A DNA stretch of 64,000 bases, from UHGV virus genome UHGV-0326994. One strand, 5' to 3'. This DNA comes from a virus. Position numbers and translations under genes: made by a program. Below, one piece after another: positions 11,912 through 29,030 of the stretch. The notes beneath the pieces were generated by a model. The model saw only the letters and a program-made list of their open reading frames with translations, was not told the DNA's origin and did not search any database. Every line of letters begins with the position of its first letter. Within the stretch, counting starts at the first letter, position 1.

Positions 11912-12310
11912 ATGAAGCTTTGGGCTAGTGACTTTGGGACTTTTAAGTACACCCGTAATGGTTCAATGGTGAGAATCATTGGCAGCCAGATTGTAGTAAA
12001 TGGTGATGAGGTTTCTACAAAGTTCACTGTAGAGTTAGCTGAGCTATCACCTATTACCCGTGCTAAAGATGGGCTTTTCAGGTTCGAGATTTACAAAGTA
12101 GATGAGTATGGTCGTTTCAACCCTCTTGGAGAAAGTGGATTAGATATTATTTCTGAACACCCATTGACAGCAGAGCAATTGTCAGGTTACTATAAAACCA
12201 TCCTTGAAAGAGAGTTAGCAACTCATGAGTGTGAAGCAAGATACCATATTGAACGTTGCGAAACACTCAAAGAAAAGATAAAACTAGCAGAGAGAGGTTT
12301 TTATGAATAA
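11912..12310 (+). CDS. hypothetical protein (132 aa)
   Basis: ORF track; AAGGAGA RBS. Confidence 0.55.
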   Translation: MKLWASDFGTFKYTRNGSMVRIIGSQIVVNGDEVSTKFTVELAELSPITRAKDGLFRFEIYKVDEYGRFNPLGESGLDIISEHPLTAEQLSGYYKTILERELATHECEARYHIERCETLKEKIKLAERGFYE

Positions 12311-12698
12311 TAACAGTCATATCCATGTTAAAGTTGATGCCAGTCGTTACAGCGAAAATGAAGAATTAGACCTGAAAGATGCTATTCTTTTTGAGAAGAA
12401 TGGTAACCTTCATTTGCATTTTGAAGGTACAAACACATATCTCCACAGATGCCGAGATGATGCCGATGGTTGTCCTGTTTTTGCTTGGTACAATTTAGAG
12501 TTCCCTCTTTATGCAATCCACTACCCAGATGGTGGAGAGGACTGGACTACTCAATCAATCTTTGATGAGCTTAATGGTGTTCCAGTTGAGCAAGAAGAGC
12601 AAGAACCTGTTGAACTAACCTTCACCTTCATCAAAGAAGAGAAGGTAGGTGATTTGTCTGTAACTGAAGCAATTCAAGTCTCACAGGTTATTCGTTAA
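12303..12698 (+). CDS. hypothetical protein (131 aa)
   Basis: ORF track; start overlaps stop of upstream gene. Confidence 0.5.
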   Translation: MNNNSHIHVKVDASRYSENEELDLKDAILFEKNGNLHLHFEGTNTYLHRCRDDADGCPVFAWYNLEFPLYAIHYPDGGEDWTTQSIFDELNGVPVEQEEQEPVELTFTFIKEEKVGDLSVTEAIQVSQVIR

Positions 12699-12991
12699 TG
12701 AGTAAAGTACAGGTTATTTTCCCTATTTGTGACTTCTCACTAGAGCGTGAACTTGACCTGTACGAAGAAATTACTGACGAAATCATCTGGTCTGTTGTAG
12801 AAGAGGCTATCAAGAAACTGTATGGTGGCCTCTTAAATCCATCAAGTAAAAAGCTCAACACCAAACAAGTAGCTGATACGTACACTTCATATGATGCCTA
12901 CAACAAACCTTTTGAAAATACCTGCTTTGACCTTATGGTAGGTAATAATAAAGTCAACTATTTCTTCGTCAGAGAGTTTAACGATGAGTAA
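12698..12991 (+). CDS. hypothetical protein (97 aa)
   Basis: ORF track; overlapping start/stop arrangement. Confidence 0.45.
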   Translation: MSKVQVIFPICDFSLERELDLYEEITDEIIWSVVEEAIKKLYGGLLNPSSKKLNTKQVADTYTSYDAYNKPFENTCFDLMVGNNKVNYFFVREFNDE

Positions 12992-13328
12992 GCTCCATGT
13001 CACAGTGTACAAAAACTTCTCAGATATCAAAGAGTCTTTAACCAACAAGCTTGACTTACAACGGAAAAGACTCTTTTTAATGTATGACATCGACAACTAC
13101 AACCATCCTAAAGAGTTTAACTACAAAGATGGTACAAAGGTCGTTGAATTTGAAGATTCTGTAACGGTGTATGTTAAACACGACTTACCAGCAAAGTACA
13201 TAGGCATGTTAGAGTACTATATATTCAAACATACTGGTATGCGTGGTGAATCTGTCAAGATATCTTCTATAGAAGTTTTTGAGAAACCAAACACACAACT
13301 TAAAAAATATTTAATGAGGAAACTGTAA
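12984..13328 (+). CDS. hypothetical protein (114 aa)
   Basis: ORF track. Confidence 0.45.
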   Translation: MSKLHVTVYKNFSDIKESLTNKLDLQRKRLFLMYDIDNYNHPKEFNYKDGTKVVEFEDSVTVYVKHDLPAKYIGMLEYYIFKHTGMRGESVKISSIEVFEKPNTQLKKYLMRKL

Positions 13329-13909
13329 TGTCCGAAGAGCAACAAAGTATCACTCCACAAGTGACATTAGTACAACATTTTGGAAACATTGAAGGGTGTA
13401 TTGCACTTTTTCAACCAAACATCAATTCTCCTGCAAAAGTCTGTAAGTTGACTATGAATGTCAACAATATCAGTGTTTGTCTTGTTGATGAAGTCCAATA
13501 CTTCAAATTCAATGACAGAGAGGTTGATGCTGCACTATTGAAGTATCGAGCAAGCCTCGAAAAAGACATTGACCATAAAGAACTTGTAACACTGTTTGGT
13601 GACCTACACAAGCTTCTTGAAAAGGTTATGAAGCGCACATACTACATGAACAATGGTTCAATTATCACCACTTTGATTTCACCATGTATCTCAGAACCTA
13701 TCCTGACTGATGATGGTGGGTATTACGTGGTAGCATCAGCAGATTCTGATTGGTGGATGAAAAATACAGCACTGAAGACGGTTATTGAGGCTATTCGTGA
13801 ACACATCCCTTCATTTAGCCCGTGGAAAGGTAAAGGTGACGAGTTTATCGCACTATTGAGTGAAGAGAGCAACAAACGCAGTGCATTACTGCCTAAAAAA
13901 TACTCTTGA
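13328..13909 (+). CDS. hypothetical protein (193 aa)
   Basis: ORF track; start overlaps upstream stop. Confidence 0.5.
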   Translation: MSEEQQSITPQVTLVQHFGNIEGCIALFQPNINSPAKVCKLTMNVNNISVCLVDEVQYFKFNDREVDAALLKYRASLEKDIDHKELVTLFGDLHKLLEKVMKRTYYMNNGSIITTLISPCISEPILTDDGGYYVVASADSDWWMKNTALKTVIEAIREHIPSFSPWKGKGDEFIALLSEESNKRSALLPKKYS

Positions 13910-13992
13910 CCGAGTATACAGTACTGATTATGATGGGAGCTATTGAGAGGTAGTTCCCTTTTTAGTTTCTAGAGAAACACTACGGTGAAAGA

Positions 13993-17757: not shown

Positions 17758-18006
17758 TTAGTTGCAACCTTGCTTATTGTAGTACAGGGAGACAATCAAA
17801 TCACCCCAATAATGGTAATGATACTCATCGTTCAACGCCTCTTTTACTGCATCTTTCCAGAAGTCATCAGTGGGGTTATAGTCTGGGATAACTTGCTTGA
17901 TAACTGTCTTCACTAATGAAAAGCATTCATCAGTTCCACCAATATCAAATTTAACGTCCAGAGTGTAGCAGCCATAAGAATTTACAATTGCGCGGATAGT
18001 TGCCAT
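17758..18006 (-). CDS. hypothetical small protein (82 aa)
   Basis: ORF track; conserved leader ...ctggagattctaaaATG upstream. Confidence 0.5.
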   Translation of the reverse strand: MATIRAIVNSYGCYTLDVKFDIGGTDECFSLVKTVIKQVIPDYNPTDDFWKDAVKEALNDEYHYHYWGDLIVSLYYNKQGCN

Positions 18007-18072
18007 TTTAGAATCTCCAGTTTAGGATTTTATTTAGTGGGGAAGGTCATTCCCTCCCCGTTGATTAGTAAT
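18007..18072 (-). repeat. conserved intergenic element, type A (hairpin GGGGAGGGAATGACCTTCCCC plus RBS leader)
   Basis: Near-identical copies at 18337, 18933, 19495, 21055, 21921. Confidence 0.65.
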
Positions 18073-18336
18073 TTACTGCATATTGGCGTATGTTGCAAGC
18101 CTTTTTTCGTTGTATTTTGTCAGAATCTCACAAGATAAAACATCATATTTTGTAACTGCTTTACCTTTGTCGAGGTCAAAGAATCCGAACGCTTTACCGT
18201 CTTTGAATCCGACAACTTCGTAAGATTCTTTAACGATTTCACCATTGAACAAATCGCTTTCGATGCGGTGAAACAGTGCTACGTCTTCTTTGTCAGTTGC
18301 AATTTGTAAAAGTGTGGTCAGTTCGACGTGTTCCAT
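18073..18336 (-). CDS. hypothetical small protein (87 aa)
   Basis: ORF track; preceded by type A element. Confidence 0.5.
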   Translation of the reverse strand: MEHVELTTLLQIATDKEDVALFHRIESDLFNGEIVKESYEVVGFKDGKAFGFFDLDKGKAVTKYDVLSCEILTKYNEKRLATYANMQ

Positions 18337-18401
18337 TTCGAATCTCCAGTTTAGGATTTTATTTAGTGGGGAAGGTCATTCCCTCCCCGTTGATTGACAA
18401 T
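18337..18401 (-). repeat. conserved intergenic element, type A
   Basis: Same 60-bp sequence as 18007-18072. Confidence 0.65.
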
Positions 18402-18932
18402 TTACAGATTTTTGATTGTCTCGTCAATATCTTTTTCAATATCTTTTAAAGTTTTTTCTAAGTTCTTGATATTGAACGTTAAACCTTCACCGAGAGTCTT
18501 AGAGTAACCGCTAGGGCGTAAATCATGCAGCTTGATTTCTTCCACATTAGATAAGTTTACCATCTCACCATTTGCAGCATAGGCTATAGATACAGTGTTT
18601 TCAGGCGCGTTGTAAAATTTGTTCAAGGACTTGATAGAACGTTCATAAGCCATTTTATAACCGTTTAAAAGGCTTTTAACGTGGTTGTGAACGTTTTTAC
18701 ACTCATCCAAGTAAATTTCTAAGAATAACGGTAATAATTCCGCGACAGCTTGCATAAAGTGAGAGACTACAACGGTTGCAACATTACGACGATGAACGTA
18801 ATAAGCCCCTTTTTCTGATTTGGTAATGGTTGCGAAATGTACACCATTACAACGAAATTCATAGGTATCTTTAACAGGCTTTGACATTACAGCATTTGAA
18901 CGAATGAAGTTGATAGCTTGAAATTTGTTCAT
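18402..18932 (-). CDS. hypothetical protein (176 aa)
   Basis: ORF track; preceded by type A element. Confidence 0.55.
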   Translation of the reverse strand: MNKFQAINFIRSNAVMSKPVKDTYEFRCNGVHFATITKSEKGAYYVHRRNVATVVVSHFMQAVAELLPLFLEIYLDECKNVHNHVKSLLNGYKMAYERSIKSLNKFYNAPENTVSIAYAANGEMVNLSNVEEIKLHDLRPSGYSKTLGEGLTFNIKNLEKTLKDIEKDIDETIKNL

Positions 18933-19000
18933 TTTAGAATCTCCAGTTTAGGACTTTATTTAGTGGGGAGGTTATTGCCTTCCCGTTGATTAGTAATTTA
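18933..19000 (-). repeat. conserved intergenic element, type A variant
   Basis: Variant hairpin GGGAAGGCAATAACCTCCCC with same leader. Confidence 0.6.
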
Positions 19001-19152: not shown

Positions 19153-19494
19153 TTAACTGATGAATATTTTTTCAGGCTTTACATAGCTGATACGCTGACT
19201 TTTTAGCAGGTCATTCCAGATTAGCGCGGCAATATGAGAATAGCCGGATTCACGTAAAAGTTTCATTGTTTTACTTCTCGTCTCAAAGCGGCTTGCGTAG
19301 TATTCACTGTTCAAGGTTGTTTTGTTCCCTTCGTTATCTGTATGGATGATTTGCATCACTTGAAAGGGGCTTACATCCTCACCTTTATTCCACTGCTCAA
19401 AGTATTTTAGGCACTGCATAGGCGATATCTTATCACTTACTTGAGTTGACCAAGATGAACCCTCTTTATCAGTAATTACAGTTACATAAGCCAT
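19153..19494 (-). CDS. hypothetical protein (113 aa)
   Basis: ORF track; preceded by type A element. Confidence 0.5.
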   Translation of the reverse strand: MAYVTVITDKEGSSWSTQVSDKISPMQCLKYFEQWNKGEDVSPFQVMQIIHTDNEGNKTTLNSEYYASRFETRSKTMKLLRESGYSHIAALIWNDLLKSQRISYVKPEKIFIS

Positions 19495-19583
19495 TTTAGA
19501 ATCTCCAGTTTAGGACTTTATTTAGTGGGGAAGGTCATTCCCTCCCCGTTGATTGACAATTTACAGATTTTTATCAGGATTGT
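19495..19583 (-). repeat. conserved intergenic element, type A
   Basis: Same sequence as 18337-18401. Confidence 0.65.
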
Positions 19584-20426: not shown

Positions 20427-20513
20427 TTTAGAATCTCCTAGTTTAAGGATTGAGTGGTAAAGCTCTTTATCTGGGGCTTACTTTATCGAACTATAAGCCC
20501 CCTGTAAAGTACT
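20427..20513 (-). repeat. conserved intergenic element, type B (promoter-like -35 TTTACA / -10 TAAAGT overlapping hairpin GGGGCTTA...TAAGCCCC)
   Basis: Minus strand reads TTTACA-17nt-TAAAGT with the 8-bp stem hairpin between; repeated at 20763, 21562, 22635, 23240, 23619, 24086. Confidence 0.6.
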
Positions 20514-20762
20514 TTATTTAACTTTCTTTGAGAAAATTAGTTTAACTGCAACCGTAGGAATCTCGTCAGCGCTTGTAACTAGCATTACTTTTTGAGTAAC
20601 CAACTTATAACCGTTCTTTGCAGCGTATGCGGTAAAACGGTTAACGTTGTAACTATAAGTTTTTGGTGTGCTATCTGGCATGTGGTAAAGAAAAGGTTTA
20701 CCCAAATTTTCTTCTTGTGTCAACAGTCGGCAGGTATCAGGTATATTGAAATAGTTCATCAT
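20514..20762 (-). CDS. hypothetical small protein (82 aa)
   Basis: ORF track. Confidence 0.45.
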   Translation of the reverse strand: MMNYFNIPDTCRLLTQEENLGKPFLYHMPDSTPKTYSYNVNRFTAYAAKNGYKLVTQKVMLVTSADEIPTVAVKLIFSKKVK

Positions 20763-20856
20763 TTTTGAATCTCCTAGTTTAAGGATTGAGTGGTAAAGCT
20801 CTTTATCTGGGGCTTAAGATATCAACTTTTAAGCCCCCTGTAAAGTACTTTATCAG
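20763..20856 (-). repeat. conserved intergenic element, type B
   Basis: Near-identical to 20427-20513. Confidence 0.6.
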
Positions 20857-21054
20857 TTATTTTTTGACAACTTTTAAAACTGCAAGATAACCTAAGCAAT
20901 AAGAATCACCGAAGAGAGTTCTCCCCATGAAAGAATCCTCTTTGATATCCTTTGCAGTGACAGTTTTTTCTACGCCGTGGGAAAGGACTACATCACCAAC
21001 TTTGATGTCTTTGATGTGTGTTGTTTCAATGGTTAAGCCGTTAATAATAGCCAT
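20857..21054 (-). CDS. hypothetical small protein (65 aa)
   Basis: ORF track. Confidence 0.4.
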   Translation of the reverse strand: MAIINGLTIETTHIKDIKVGDVVLSHGVEKTVTAKDIKEDSFMGRTLFGDSYCLGYLAVLKVVKK

Positions 21055-21561: not shown

Positions 21562-21647
21562 TTTTAAGTTCTCCAATTTAGGATTGAGTGGTAAAGTTCT
21601 TTATCTGGGGCTTACTTTATCGAACTATAAGCCCCTTGTAAAGTACT
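21562..21647 (-). repeat. conserved intergenic element, type B
   Basis: Hairpin GGGGCTTA...TAAGCCCC with promoter-like hexamers. Confidence 0.6.
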
Positions 21648-21920
21648 TTATACTAAATGCAGCTTTTTACCTTTTACTATGATGTAACTAGATGCGCTAT
21701 TGCTGCATACATCTTGGTAAATTCTGCGCAAACGTCCTTCATAGTGTACTTTCCAACTGGTTGGAATCTTTTTCCCGTATCCTGTAGCAGTTTTTTGGAG
21801 TCCTGCAACTTGCCAATTTAAGATGTGTTGCTCAGCCCGTAAATCTTCAAAGCACATCACACCATCTACATAGTGACGCAAGGTGACATTTAAGGTGCGA
21901 CCGTTGTTAGTAGTATACAT
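21648..21920 (-). CDS. hypothetical small protein (90 aa)
   Basis: ORF track. Confidence 0.45.
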   Translation of the reverse strand: MYTTNNGRTLNVTLRHYVDGVMCFEDLRAEQHILNWQVAGLQKTATGYGKKIPTSWKVHYEGRLRRIYQDVCSNSASSYIIVKGKKLHLV

Positions 21921-22634: not shown

Positions 22635-22726
22635 TTTTGAGTCTCCTAGTTTAAGGGCTTTATTTGATAAATCTCTTTATCTGGGGCTATCCTACCAGCT
22701 TGATAACCCCGTGTAAAGAAATCTAT
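22635..22726 (-). repeat. conserved intergenic element, type B variant
   Basis: Divergent copy with same leader. Confidence 0.5.
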
Positions 22727-23239
22727 TTAGTTCTTAAAGATATTCATCACTGAATCTTTCAACGATTCCAAACGTTCTAATACTTCAGTTTCTGCGTCTG
22801 AATTGCTCACCTCTTCTTTTAGTCTATCCTCTAAATCATCACCGTCACGATAGCACCAATCGAAAGCATAACCAAGATAAAAACTTTCTAAAACCGTGTT
22901 ACCGTTTGCATCCACAACTTTCGCGGCAAGGTTGTACTCTGAAGCCTCTAAATCTCTTTCGAGTTCTTTCTGTAAGCTGGTGTAAGCCTCTTTTGATGGA
23001 TTTTCCCGACCTTGTTTTGCATAGTCACTTGAAAGCTGTTTCAGGCTGTAATGTAAAGGGATTGCATATTTAAATCCATTACGCTGATAAATAGGATTTT
23101 TAACAGTAACACCGCCTTGATGGTTGTCTGTAAATTCCCAATTATCAAGGTTATGGCTTGCTTCGTAGCAATTAACAGCTTCGTAAATGATGGAAAATTT
23201 TTCTTTTACAACTTCAAAGGTAGCGTCTACAGTTTTCAT
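22727..23239 (-). CDS. hypothetical protein (170 aa)
   Basis: ORF track. Confidence 0.5.
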   Translation of the reverse strand: MKTVDATFEVVKEKFSIIYEAVNCYEASHNLDNWEFTDNHQGGVTVKNPIYQRNGFKYAIPLHYSLKQLSSDYAKQGRENPSKEAYTSLQKELERDLEASEYNLAAKVVDANGNTVLESFYLGYAFDWCYRDGDDLEDRLKEEVSNSDAETEVLERLESLKDSVMNIFKN

Positions 23240-23324
23240 TTTTGAATCTCCAGTTTAGGATTTAGTGGTAAAGCTCTTTATCTGGGGCTTAAGATATCAA
23301 CTTTTAAGCCCCTTGTAAAGTACT
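23240..23324 (-). repeat. conserved intergenic element, type B
   Basis: Near-identical to 20763-20856. Confidence 0.6.
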
Positions 23325-23618
23325 TTATTTGTTAATTTTCAGCTTTGCATAACCTCTCATTGTACGGATGGGCGATGTTAAGGCCATGCGTCTGATATAT
23401 GCCTTTTTCGTGTATACGCTTGTCTTCCCGATAGTGTTTACACATGTAAAAAGGTTTACCGGTGAATTTTTTAACTTCAACTGCTTATCAGCCTTCACGC
23501 CCCACCTTACAGCGGATTGTTTCCCGTTGTCAATCACTTTCCCGCATAACTTTTTAGCTATGTTGCGAGCGTCATCACGAGTCTTTGCAGTAATTACAAC
23601 GTTTTTGATAATAGCCAT
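23325..23618 (-). CDS. hypothetical protein (97 aa)
   Basis: ORF track start trimmed to MAIIKN; shares MAI- N-terminus with ORF 21157-21561. Confidence 0.45.
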   Translation of the reverse strand: MAIIKNVVITAKTRDDARNIAKKLCGKVIDNGKQSAVRWGVKADKQLKLKNSPVNLFTCVNTIGKTSVYTKKAYIRRMALTSPIRTMRGYAKLKINK

Positions 23619-23704
23619 TTTTAAGTTCTCCAATTTAGGATTGAGTGGTAAAGCTCTTTATCTGGGGCTTACTTTATCGAACTATAAGCCCCTTGTAAAG
23701 TACT
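23619..23704 (-). repeat. conserved intergenic element, type B
   Basis: Near-identical to 21562-21647. Confidence 0.6.
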
Positions 23705-24085
23705 TTATTTAATTTTGAAAATTGTTACATAACCATCACTACCGATTATTTGAGACACTCCAGCTTTTTCTACTTGATAGCCCATATTTTCAAGATGATA
23801 AACAGCATCATCATAACCATATGCGCCGCCTTGATAACGTCTCTTATCGCATCTTACTAATACCTTTCCACGTCCAGCAAGTGCATTCAGTACAGCTTTT
23901 TCACTTGAGAGTGTGCCATCTAACATGGTTGCCGTGTAATGGTTGATTCTATTCCCGTTTACATCATACTTAAAATTGTATGCGTGAACAACAATAACGT
24001 TGCCTTTGAAATTTTCATCAAGTGACTTCTCCAGTACTTTGCGAAAGTTGTCTTTGTTGATGAATTTCGGTGCACGATAAGCCAT
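23705..24085 (-). CDS. hypothetical protein (126 aa)
   Basis: ORF track. Confidence 0.5.
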   Translation of the reverse strand: MAYRAPKFINKDNFRKVLEKSLDENFKGNVIVVHAYNFKYDVNGNRINHYTATMLDGTLSSEKAVLNALAGRGKVLVRCDKRRYQGGAYGYDDAVYHLENMGYQVEKAGVSQIIGSDGYVTIFKIK

Positions 24086-24174
24086 TTTTGAATCTCCTAG
24101 TTTAAGGTTAGTTAGTAAAGCTCTTTATCTGGGGCTTACTTTATCGAACTATAAGCCCCTTGTAAAGTACTTTA
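24086..24174 (-). repeat. conserved intergenic element, type B
   Basis: Same repeat family. Confidence 0.6.
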
Positions 24175-24381
24175 TTAGATATTGTAGTAATAAACTGCTG
24201 TCTGTCTTATGTACTTTCTTGTATTTCTTGTAAGGTAGCAATTAGAGTTTATAGCTGTTTCTACATAGTTGCAATAGTCAGCTTCTGATATTCTGGACCA
24301 TACGTCACAGATTTTCATGTAAAAACGTTTTACCTTTGTGTTAACGTTAGTTGTAACCATCAATTCGCGACTGTACAGCAT
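24175..24381 (-). CDS. hypothetical small protein (68 aa)
   Basis: ORF track; first gene downstream of the 24.4-24.9 kb regulatory intergenic region. Confidence 0.4.
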   Translation of the reverse strand: MLYSRELMVTTNVNTKVKRFYMKICDVWSRISEADYCNYVETAINSNCYLTRNTRKYIRQTAVYYYNI

Positions 24382-24639
24382 TTTTAGATTCTCCAGTTTA
24401 GGAAGTGGGCTTGATTGCCCGTCTGATGCAAATATTAGATAACCATACTCAAAGAGTCAATAGGAATTTTAAAAATATTTTTGGCAAAAATGTAATGAAA
24501 CGGGTGCGCGCGAATACCACAAAACAGAACACAAATCAAGAATTATTTTCCAATCCGCTACAAATTTTTCTGTTGACTTTTCTTTTCGGATGTGGTAGCC
24601 TTGTGAGAAATGGCGACATTCCCACCTGCACCCACCTAC

Positions 24640-24815
24640 CTGCACAATTCTAAAATGATTTTTCTTGCCCGACCTGAGCGGGGTCTGCACGTTTTGAAAA
24701 TAAAAAAGCTCTTTGGAGATTATCTGCACAGTTTGAAAATGAATTTTCTCTTTGGAGTTCAAAATTTTCTCTACAGATTTCTCTAGAGAAATACACCTGC
24801 ACAATCCTGAAATAA
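24640..24815. repeat. four direct repeats of a 19-bp motif CTGCAC[AG]NT[TC][CT]TGAAAAT
   Basis: Copies near 24641, 24688, 24725, 24797 within the 500-bp intergenic region. Confidence 0.5.
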
Positions 24816-24888
24816 AAAAGCCCTCCTTACCTGAAAAATTTACCAGATAAGAAAGGCTTAGTCTATTGTGAATATCCTACAGAGTTTC

Positions 24889-28930: not shown

Positions 28931-29030
28931 TGGTTCTCCTGTTTAGTTTATCGTGACAACAATTATACAGTACTCTGCACAAAATACAAATAAAAAAGGC
29001 CGCCGAAGCAGCCTTTTAAGAAATTACTTA

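Follow-up and report, generated by a model that had tools for sequence, protein, structure and literature searches.

What is a conserved stretch of about 500 bp doing between two genes of a phage genome in which nearly everything else is gene? The question is raised by positions 24382-24888 of the virus genome UHGV-0326994, analyzed here as a stretch of 64,000 nucleotides (nt; the window). About 92% of the genome is occupied by genes (90.6% open reading frames [ORFs] and 1.8% tRNAs), and the interval belongs to its few long noncoding segments (0.5-0.7 kb). A preliminary description placed four 19-bp direct repeats here, between a macro-domain gene and the first ORF of a block of small ORFs, likened them to operator or iteron arrays and suggested that they may control entry into the early block. 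The placement is correct (Table 1). The window is a Felixounavirus: the surrounding region is 92-96% identical to many genomes of this genus, the Felix O1-like myoviruses of Escherichia and Salmonella. When only the 507-bp interval is compared, 283 phage records match, and in 238 the match spans at least 80% of the interval. We find that the repeats form a noncoding array that is unique in the genome and conserved across the subfamily Ounavirinae, and we tentatively read its units as binding sites for a phage protein.

The motif as first written, CTGCAC[AG]NT[TC][CT]TGAAAAT, has no match in the window, being one base too long, and the core common to the repeats is 17 rather than 19 nt. The corrected consensus, CTGCACRNTYYKRAAAT, with at most one mismatch, matches four times in 64 kb against 0.06 matches expected, and no shuffled sequence gave four. 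The direct repeats are therefore present in the interval far beyond chance, at start-to-start distances of 45, 39, and 73 bp along the plus strand. Nothing outside 24382-24888 matches anywhere in the window, and the coding regions are free of the motif. Read on the minus strand, which carries all of the genes around the array, each unit follows the formula (A/T)5-TCATTTT-N6-GTGCAGGTA, an asymmetric motif of about 20 bp. Comparison with relatives extends the full unit to about 29-40 nt: a loosely kept G-rich or GAACTCC-type box, five T/A positions, TCATTTT, N6 (often CAAnnT), and GTGCAGGTA. A position weight matrix (PWM) derived from 36 different units in relatives gives the copies in the window 32-38 bits and those of Felix O1 36-41 bits; the next best site in either genome reaches 13 bits.

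An array of three to five such units lies 3' of the macro gene in Felixounavirus, Mooglevirus/Suspvirus, Kolesnikvirus, and L313, a metagenomic contig of 88 kb (IMGVR_UViG_3300045988_063805) that apparently represents a new Ounavirinae-like lineage; in every lineage compared, the macro gene is directly upstream. Measured from the macro stop codon, GTGCA occurs at offsets of 88, 161, 200, and 245 in Felixounavirus (spacing, 73/39/45) and at 95, 170, 211, and 256 in Moogle- and SUSP-like phages (75/41/45). The Kolesnikvirus phages phiEa21-4 and SeKF_13 have four head-to-tail units with periods of 37/37/39. Unit R4 is orthologous to unit 3 of phiEa21-4 and is the sole part of the region that BLAST picks up in Kolesnikvirus. 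Si3 and finno carry three units (75/45), with R2 absent; a deletion of 2 nt damages R3 in wV8, and in one phage the sequence is GTGTAG. L313 has five units in two clusters, within about 700 nt of noncoding DNA 3' of its macro gene (440-1180). The units have kept their number, order, and spacing across genera. Unit-to-unit distances of 73-77 and 84 bp recur, corresponding to about seven and eight helical turns.

Between the window and the Moogle-like phages, the unit cores are 80-81% identical, compared to 64-67% for the spacers in three of the four Moogle-like phages examined (79% in the mosaic L029) and 57-70% for the 4-fold degenerate sites of the macro gene. The alignments thus indicate that the cores are under more conservation than either the spacers or neighboring near-neutral sites. 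The 3' part of the unit has also changed in concert, with GTGCAGGTA becoming GTGCATAG or a near variant in all Kolesnikvirus units and in four of the five L313 units, as co-evolution with a trans-acting reader would yield. The array is kept in at least five lineages, down to about 65% protein identity and beyond, and was absent from two unrelated phages with macro genes. Among viral contigs, a two-unit pattern matched only Ounavirinae-like contigs and L313, and the matches to a single-unit pattern outside the Ounavirinae were due to chance. Searched against genomes, the two-unit pattern gave CRISPR-like and chance matches among those listed, a search in which enterobacterial matches may be missed; BLAST against Escherichia coli genomes and plasmids returned nothing meaningful.

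The motif is confined to this single locus in the window and in Felix O1 (complete genome); over the first 45 kb of phiEa21-4, only the four array units match. With no further strong sites outside the array, it is not a genome-wide promoter class. A fifth, weaker related site follows the rIIB terminator (Table 1); it scores 20-25 bits in Moogle-like phages, above its score in the window. Its TGTGCAG falls at about -25 to -20 of a promoter with a perfect -10 element (TATAAT, 28967..28962) and a poor -35 element, and this heptamer is kept in three lineages while the adjacent spacer bases vary. The whole segment (28962-29000, minus strand) is a terminator-promoter junction in which the terminator T-tract takes the position of an UP element. 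A copy of the motif in promoter DNA is placed where the motif would be read as DNA.

Because this promoter copy sits in DNA that is read as DNA, we favor, tentatively and at less than an even chance, an operator-type array whose units are predicted double-stranded DNA recognition sites for a phage-encoded, sequence-specific protein. We infer recognition at the DNA level, by a phage protein, with transcriptional control as the result. A dedicated, probably phage-encoded factor is suggested by the asymmetric 20-bp motif, its three to five direct copies at one locus, the concerted change, the distances of about 74 and 84 bp, and the promoter copy. Such a factor would switch the post-rIIB promoter, either by repression or by replacing its -35 element. 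It would also occupy the boundary 3' of the macro operon, ahead of the small-ORF promoter cluster, where occupancy could affect the promoter-like site P_A, the promoter P_B, an antisense promoter-like site, or read-through of the terminator. The proposed time of action is the early-to-middle transition. Of the original proposal, the class of operator or iteron array is still the best supported, but control of entry into the early block is unproven, as the block has promoters of its own: the sigma70-type P_A and P_B follow the array at a distance of 100-190 bp, and a separate promoter cassette serves every later small ORF.

Several points weigh against an operator-type array. No candidate binding protein emerged, the flanking small proteins having no Pfam domain and belonging only to function-unknown PHROG families. 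The nearest same-strand promoters are 100-300 bp away, which is far for a simple operator. The spacing is irregular, with R3 out of helical phase. Gene conversion between tandem units could also give the concerted change, and part of the score of the post-rIIB site stems from a generic terminator T-tract. Finally, the array region is transcribed (reverse transcription-PCR [RT-PCR] spanning R2-R4, with a peak at 25 min), so the motif could act in RNA.

Table 1. Repeat units, related site, and surrounding features of the window
Feature	Coordinates	Strand	Sequence	Basis and remarks
Macro-domain gene, 261 aa	24889..25674	-		ORF list; Pfam Macro, E 2.8e-7; PDB OARD1 4j5r, E 1.4e-5; synteny
Intrinsic terminator hairpin of macro operon (t13 of Felix O1)	24818..24859	-	17 pairs, then TTTTATTTCA	Scan
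Unit R1	24794..24822	-	GGCTTTTTTATTTCAGGATTGTGCAGGTG	Core CTGCACAATCCTGAAAT at 24797-24813 (+); PWM 34.4 bits
Unit R2	24721..24749	-	AGAAAATTCATTTTCAAACTGTGCAGATA	Core CTGCACAGTTTGAAAAT at 24724-24740 (+); PWM 38.2 bits
Unit R3	24682..24710	-	AGCTTTTTTATTTTCAAAACGTGCAGACC	Core CTGCACGTTTTGAAAAT at 24685-24701 (+); PWM 32.5 bits
Unit R4	24637..24665	-	AGAAAAATCATTTTAGAATTGTGCAGGTA	Core CTGCACAATTCTAAAAT at 24640-24656 (+); PWM 36.4 bits
Variable module of about 55 nt after R4	24583..24636	-		Alignment
Antisense promoter-like site	24573..24601	+	TTGACT-17-TAGCCT	Predicted from sequence; points into array
Promoter-like site P_A	24511..24539	-	TTGATT-17-TATTCG, preceded by A-tract	Predicted; -35 and spacing conserved
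Promoter P_B	24432..24460	-	TTGACT-17-TAATAT	Promoter scan; conserved in alignment
68-aa ORF, first of small-ORF block	24381..24175	-		ORF list
Fifth, weaker related site	28972..29000	-		Directly after rIIB terminator; PWM 13 bits

The resemblance of the units to the post-rIIB terminator-promoter junction raises the question of whether they are evolutionary debris, that is, duplicated halves of terminator tails and promoter-upstream regions that have lost the -10 element and have no function of their own. R1 is fused to the U-tract of the macro-operon terminator (24808-24817 continues into it), so that its T-run is the terminator tail. In favor of debris, TTTTTCATTT is a generic terminator tail in Felix O1 (Felix O1 paper); R3 has AAAGAGCTT in common with the intergenic promoter cassettes of the small-ORF block; and single units have been lost or damaged in some phages. 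We nevertheless consider debris improbable because of the conservation: the cores exceed both spacers and 4-fold sites, the persistence over at least five lineages reaches the protein divergence given above, and in Kolesnikvirus a DNA search detects nothing of the region but the array.

The same facts that point to an operator-type array suit an iteron origin almost as well. The units might be iterons for a phage initiator, or might organize a T7-like transcription-primed origin, with the A+T-rich promoter flank as the unwinding or priming zone. Three to five direct repeats at a single locus per genome, in a long noncoding stretch that adjoins A+T-rich DNA and several promoters on both strands, are what such an origin would show, and its conservation and co-evolution extend across genera. 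In L313, a very A+T-rich tract with abundant TTAACA contains four copies of another repeat, TTTTAACAACTCATTAAC (18 nt), which forms a second family. A T7-like replisome is encoded by Felix O1 itself, for which no origin has been mapped (Felix O1 paper), and we found no mapped replication origin in the literature on Felix O1-like phages. No initiator is annotated in Felix O1, however, and the proteins flanking the array have no Pfam domain. No change in GC or AT skew occurs at 24.5 kb within the co-oriented block, which is a weak test in phages; the irregular spacing is unlike that of classical iterons, which T7-type replisomes do not need; and the promoter location of the fifth site is more in keeping with a transcription factor than with an origin. 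We regard an origin as possible but doubtful.

Expression data bear on whether the array acts as RNA. In Felix O1, where the equivalents of the macro gene, its terminator, and the 68-aa ORF are ORF13, t13, and ORF15, an "ORF14" RT-PCR amplicon (8042-8254, covering R2-R4 and beyond) was positive with a peak at 25 min, and the flanking ORF13 and ORF16 peak at 5 min (Felix O1 paper). The RT-PCR was not strand specific and shows no more than transcription of the region, with a time course distinct from that of the neighbors. The literature on Felix O1-like phages yielded no transcript-start or small-RNA data, and a CRISPRi-ART screen of SUSP1 targeted annotated genes only. A transcribed array could offer an unstructured RNA with several 20-nt single-stranded motifs that bind or titrate a protein or RNA, as a sponge or decoy. 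It would derive from read-through of the macro operon, as part of a 3' untranslated region (UTR), or from the antisense promoter-like site. Phages provide a precedent in the tandem-repeat decoy RNA pseudo-ToxI (PMC3475682).

Folding results are compatible with a single-stranded binding platform and reject a structured noncoding RNA. Single units mostly fold worse than their shuffles (z, +0.8 to +1.9 in Felixounavirus and Mooglevirus), as expected for such a platform, and folding of the whole array gives z-scores of 0.62 for one strand and -0.04 for the other. For 10 diverse sequences, RNAalifold returned -20 kcal/mol (covariation term, -0.8 kcal/mol), with the terminator hairpin as the only clearly supported helix; these tools are blind to pseudoknots and tested hairpin-type pairing only. 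Searching Rfam at E ≤ 5 gave two chance matches, both outside the array. With neither a covariance-model match nor covarying helices in the array, a structured RNA or Rfam family was rejected.

A function in RNA would agree with the attachment of the array to the 3' end of the macro gene, an adjacency kept in five lineages despite differences in the upstream gene and in macro length. In L313, the upstream gene encodes a Dam-like methyltransferase, the macro protein has 148 aa, and there is no obvious terminator between gene and array. In most lineages, however, a strong terminator with a 17-pair stem precedes the array, and there is no sense-strand promoter with a conserved -10 element. The units have no Rfam match, no GGA-in-loop, and no other known protein-binding RNA motif, and an RNA-level role leaves the fifth site, embedded in a promoter, unexplained. 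We consider it unlikely that the array functions in RNA. It is more speculative still, and improbable, that array and macro gene form one module in which an unstructured multicopy RNA, unrelated to ToxI, serves as an antidefense decoy or scaffold.

Could the kinetics instead reflect four tandem promoters firing just 3' of GTGCAGG? These might be of the sigma70 type, sigmaE-like (GAACT...TCAAA), or activator-dependent middle promoters. Units carry UP-like A/T tracts and TTTTCA or TTCAAA, which match four of six positions of the -35 consensus. In some lineages, TAnnnT follows GTGCAGG immediately or TATAGn lies 9 nt 3' of R4, and GAACTC precedes TCAAA in some units. A promoter scan, however, detected no sense-strand sigma70 promoter inside the array, and no -10 element is conserved at a fixed distance, the position-2 A of the candidate -10 varying (TATAGA, TGTAGA, TCTAGA). 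The spacer of the sigmaE-like arrangement is 18 rather than 16 nt, and the motif stands upstream of no other gene block, which makes tandem promoters very improbable. Comparison by eye with sigma70, sigma54, sigmaE, sigma32, MotA-box, CRP, IHF, Fis, DnaA, marbox, EcoKI, and CRISPR-repeat consensus sequences, a source of leads rather than a test, found none that fits all units.

A small protein with internal repeats is least credible of all. It would be encoded by the ORF at 24469-24804 (111 aa), by the plus-strand ORF at 24610-24786 (58 aa), or by Felix O1 "ORF14". The preliminary description put the first of these on the opposite strand; it is in fact on the minus strand, like the flanking genes. 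Both strands have open frames across the array in many relatives, an ORF is annotated here in several GenBank records, and the RT-PCR was positive. Yet the open stretch varies in extent and frame between and within relatives, and protein sequence is not conserved. The motif translates as YLHxxKM.. in some phages and as AQxENE.. in others, and its reading differs even inside a single ORF. The DNA between units contains indels of 2 and 4 nt, neither PHROG nor Pfam has a matching family, and ORF14 has been removed by RefSeq. The two findings that would have spoken against the original proposal, a motif frequent in coding regions and a conserved protein from 24469-24804, were thus not made, and a protein-coding array was rejected.

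Tandem noncoding units of about 37-45 nt in a lytic phage also recall pseudo-ToxI, and the array might be a decoy that imitates a type III antitoxin RNA and counters abortive infection of the ToxIN type. Plasmids that carry ToxIN with an identical ToxI occur commonly in E. coli and Salmonella, and short strings (GTGCAG, AGGT, GAAATTCA) are common to the units and ToxI. Local alignment of the array with ToxI, however, gave a z-score of 0.35, compared to 26 for the genuine pseudo-ToxI of phiTE. The units are not near identical, having only about 20 of 39-73 nt in common at periods of 73/39/45; they have no predicted hairpin, no covarying pairs, and no Rfam match; and no ToxN-like toxin family occurs among the neighbors. 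On period, fold, similarity, and toxin gene, we rejected a ToxI mimic, which is highly improbable.

A physical end of the genome was suspected because several IMG/VR contigs break off 300-415 bp beyond the macro gene, and one of these carries a Nextera adapter. Two stop exactly at ...CTCTTACTCC in the variable module, one of them continuing into a Nextera adapter; another ends 45 nt further on, and beyond R3 a fourth contig, a chimera, changes to DNA of bacterial appearance. These breaks fall in the C-rich, quadruplex-prone variable module or at strain-variable joins. In UAB_Phi87, whose 608-bp terminal repeat has experimentally mapped ends (PMC4837284), the ends lie near the terminase gene, about 22 kb from the array by synteny; the record begins at the tRNA end, and terminase (ORF144 of 148) is near the other. 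A packaging site (pac, cos, or terminal-repeat boundary) was accordingly rejected.

The gene order on the minus strand is macro gene, intrinsic terminator, noncoding stretch of about 500 bp, and 68-aa ORF. The terminator is listed in Table 2 of the Felix O1 paper as t13, and its 5' arm has been replaced compensatorily in Moogle-like phages. The variable module after R4, compared with the homologous position in L017, L020, L025, L027-L032, and L006, exists in two versions of equal length without similarity in either orientation, which rules out an inversion between lineages. The window has a G-rich version with an extra half-unit, GTGCAGG, at 24626-24631, and most other lineages have a C-rich version (CCCCTCTCCCCC...), extremely C-rich on the sense strand and with four quadruplex-type G-runs on the other. 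The -35 hexamer of the antisense promoter-like site is invariant in Felixounavirus and Mooglevirus (alignment columns AAAAGTCAA), its -10 element reading TAAGAG or TAATAG in the C-rich variants. The -10 element of P_A ends in G in all relatives. Between P_B and the 68-aa ORF lie a short hairpin in the 5' UTR and, after it, a conserved ribosome-binding region.

A separate repeat family, an intergenic cassette of about 70 bp, precedes each small ORF (24100-24184, 23648-23717, 23268-23329, 22649-22688, 21591-21651, 20777-20861, and 20441-20518). It contains TTTACA-17-TAAAGT with a GGGGCTTA...TAAGCCCC hairpin within the promoter spacer. In addition, a near-identical translation-initiation region of 22-25 nt (CCTAAACTGGAGAATCTAAAAATG, minus strand) is reused before several small early ORFs, with copies at 24382-24403 and near 23237-23260, 19494-19515, 18932-18953, 18336-18356, and 18006-18027. 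Further along, Felix O1 12305-13928 (about 18.9-20.5 kb in the window by synteny) comprises 1.6 kb without annotated genes between convergent gene blocks, and many GenBank records of Felix O1's genus have been opened near that stretch (around Felix O1 coordinate 14-16 kb).

Among the neighboring proteins, the TARG1/OARD1-like macro domain occupies residues ~4-168 of the 261-aa protein, the C-terminal ~95 aa being without a family match; the L313 protein is the bare domain without this extension. We take this macro type to be that of the DarG antitoxin, and the gene suggests itself as a possible candidate for an anti-DarT-type counterdefense function. A 170-aa protein (22727-23239, minus strand) is the sole protein of the small-ORF block common to all three named genera compared. 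Its homologue, Felix O1 ORF16, has an isoelectric point of 4.4 and is expressed at 5 min (Felix O1 paper); that this acidity hints at a DNA-mimic type of antirestriction protein is pure speculation.

The published repeats of Felix O1 and wV8 are intergenic repeats of 57 and 39 bp and the features DR_1 to DR_9. They lie in the same genome region, are intergenic signals in the same style, and have AAAGAGCTT in common with R3. Unlike the array, they are sigma70 promoter/hairpin cassettes before small ORFs, and the cassette family at 24100-24184 with its six further copies corresponds to the Felix O1 57-bp direct repeats and the wV8 DR features. The Felix O1 paper gives 12 direct repeats and several promoters, and the array is not among them; the wV8 and Barry annotations mark other repeats, and no wV8 feature overlapping the stretch is the array. 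The array is a subfamily-wide cis element of a familiar general kind that is not described in the literature we found on Felix O1-like phages. These are classic diagnostic and therapeutic phages, and the array, one of very few strongly conserved noncoding elements in their genomes, offers a concrete handle on their missing early-to-middle switch regulator or on their origin. Phage engineers should not assume that insertions or deletions are neutral in this "empty" stretch of 500 bp, for which some annotations give a hypothetical ORF.

How does the array compare with known systems? ToxI consists of 5.5 repeats of 36 nt. Like type III antitoxin arrays and the pseudo-ToxI of phiTE, the array is built of noncoding tandem units 36-45 nt long; it belongs to a virulent myovirus of enterobacteria, and ToxIN occurs in the same hosts. 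Unlike ToxI, it has no significant similarity, nonidentical units, no toxin gene, and no pseudoknot, pseudoknots being beyond the tools used. Among origins, lambda ori has four 19-bp sites for the O protein, and P1, F, and RK2 have iteron origins, with an iteron spacing of about 22 bp. Like these, the array is a single locus per genome with three to five direct repeats, each about 20 bp long, beside A+T-rich DNA and promoters, and its motif covaries between related genomes as though a cognate protein were following it. It differs in its irregular spacing of 39-75 bp, the lack of an internal dyad, a location neither in nor beside a recognizable initiator gene, the absence of a skew change, and one related site within a promoter. 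Regulator sites for comparison are the T4 MotA boxes at -30 of middle promoters, the P2 Cox boxes, and the lambda CII site TTGC-N6-TTGC. Unlike these, the array units have no -10 partner, and there are only five sites per genome. Like them, the motif is asymmetric and in direct orientation, and, as in a MotA-dependent promoter, the post-rIIB site would replace a poor -35 element upstream of a perfect -10 element.

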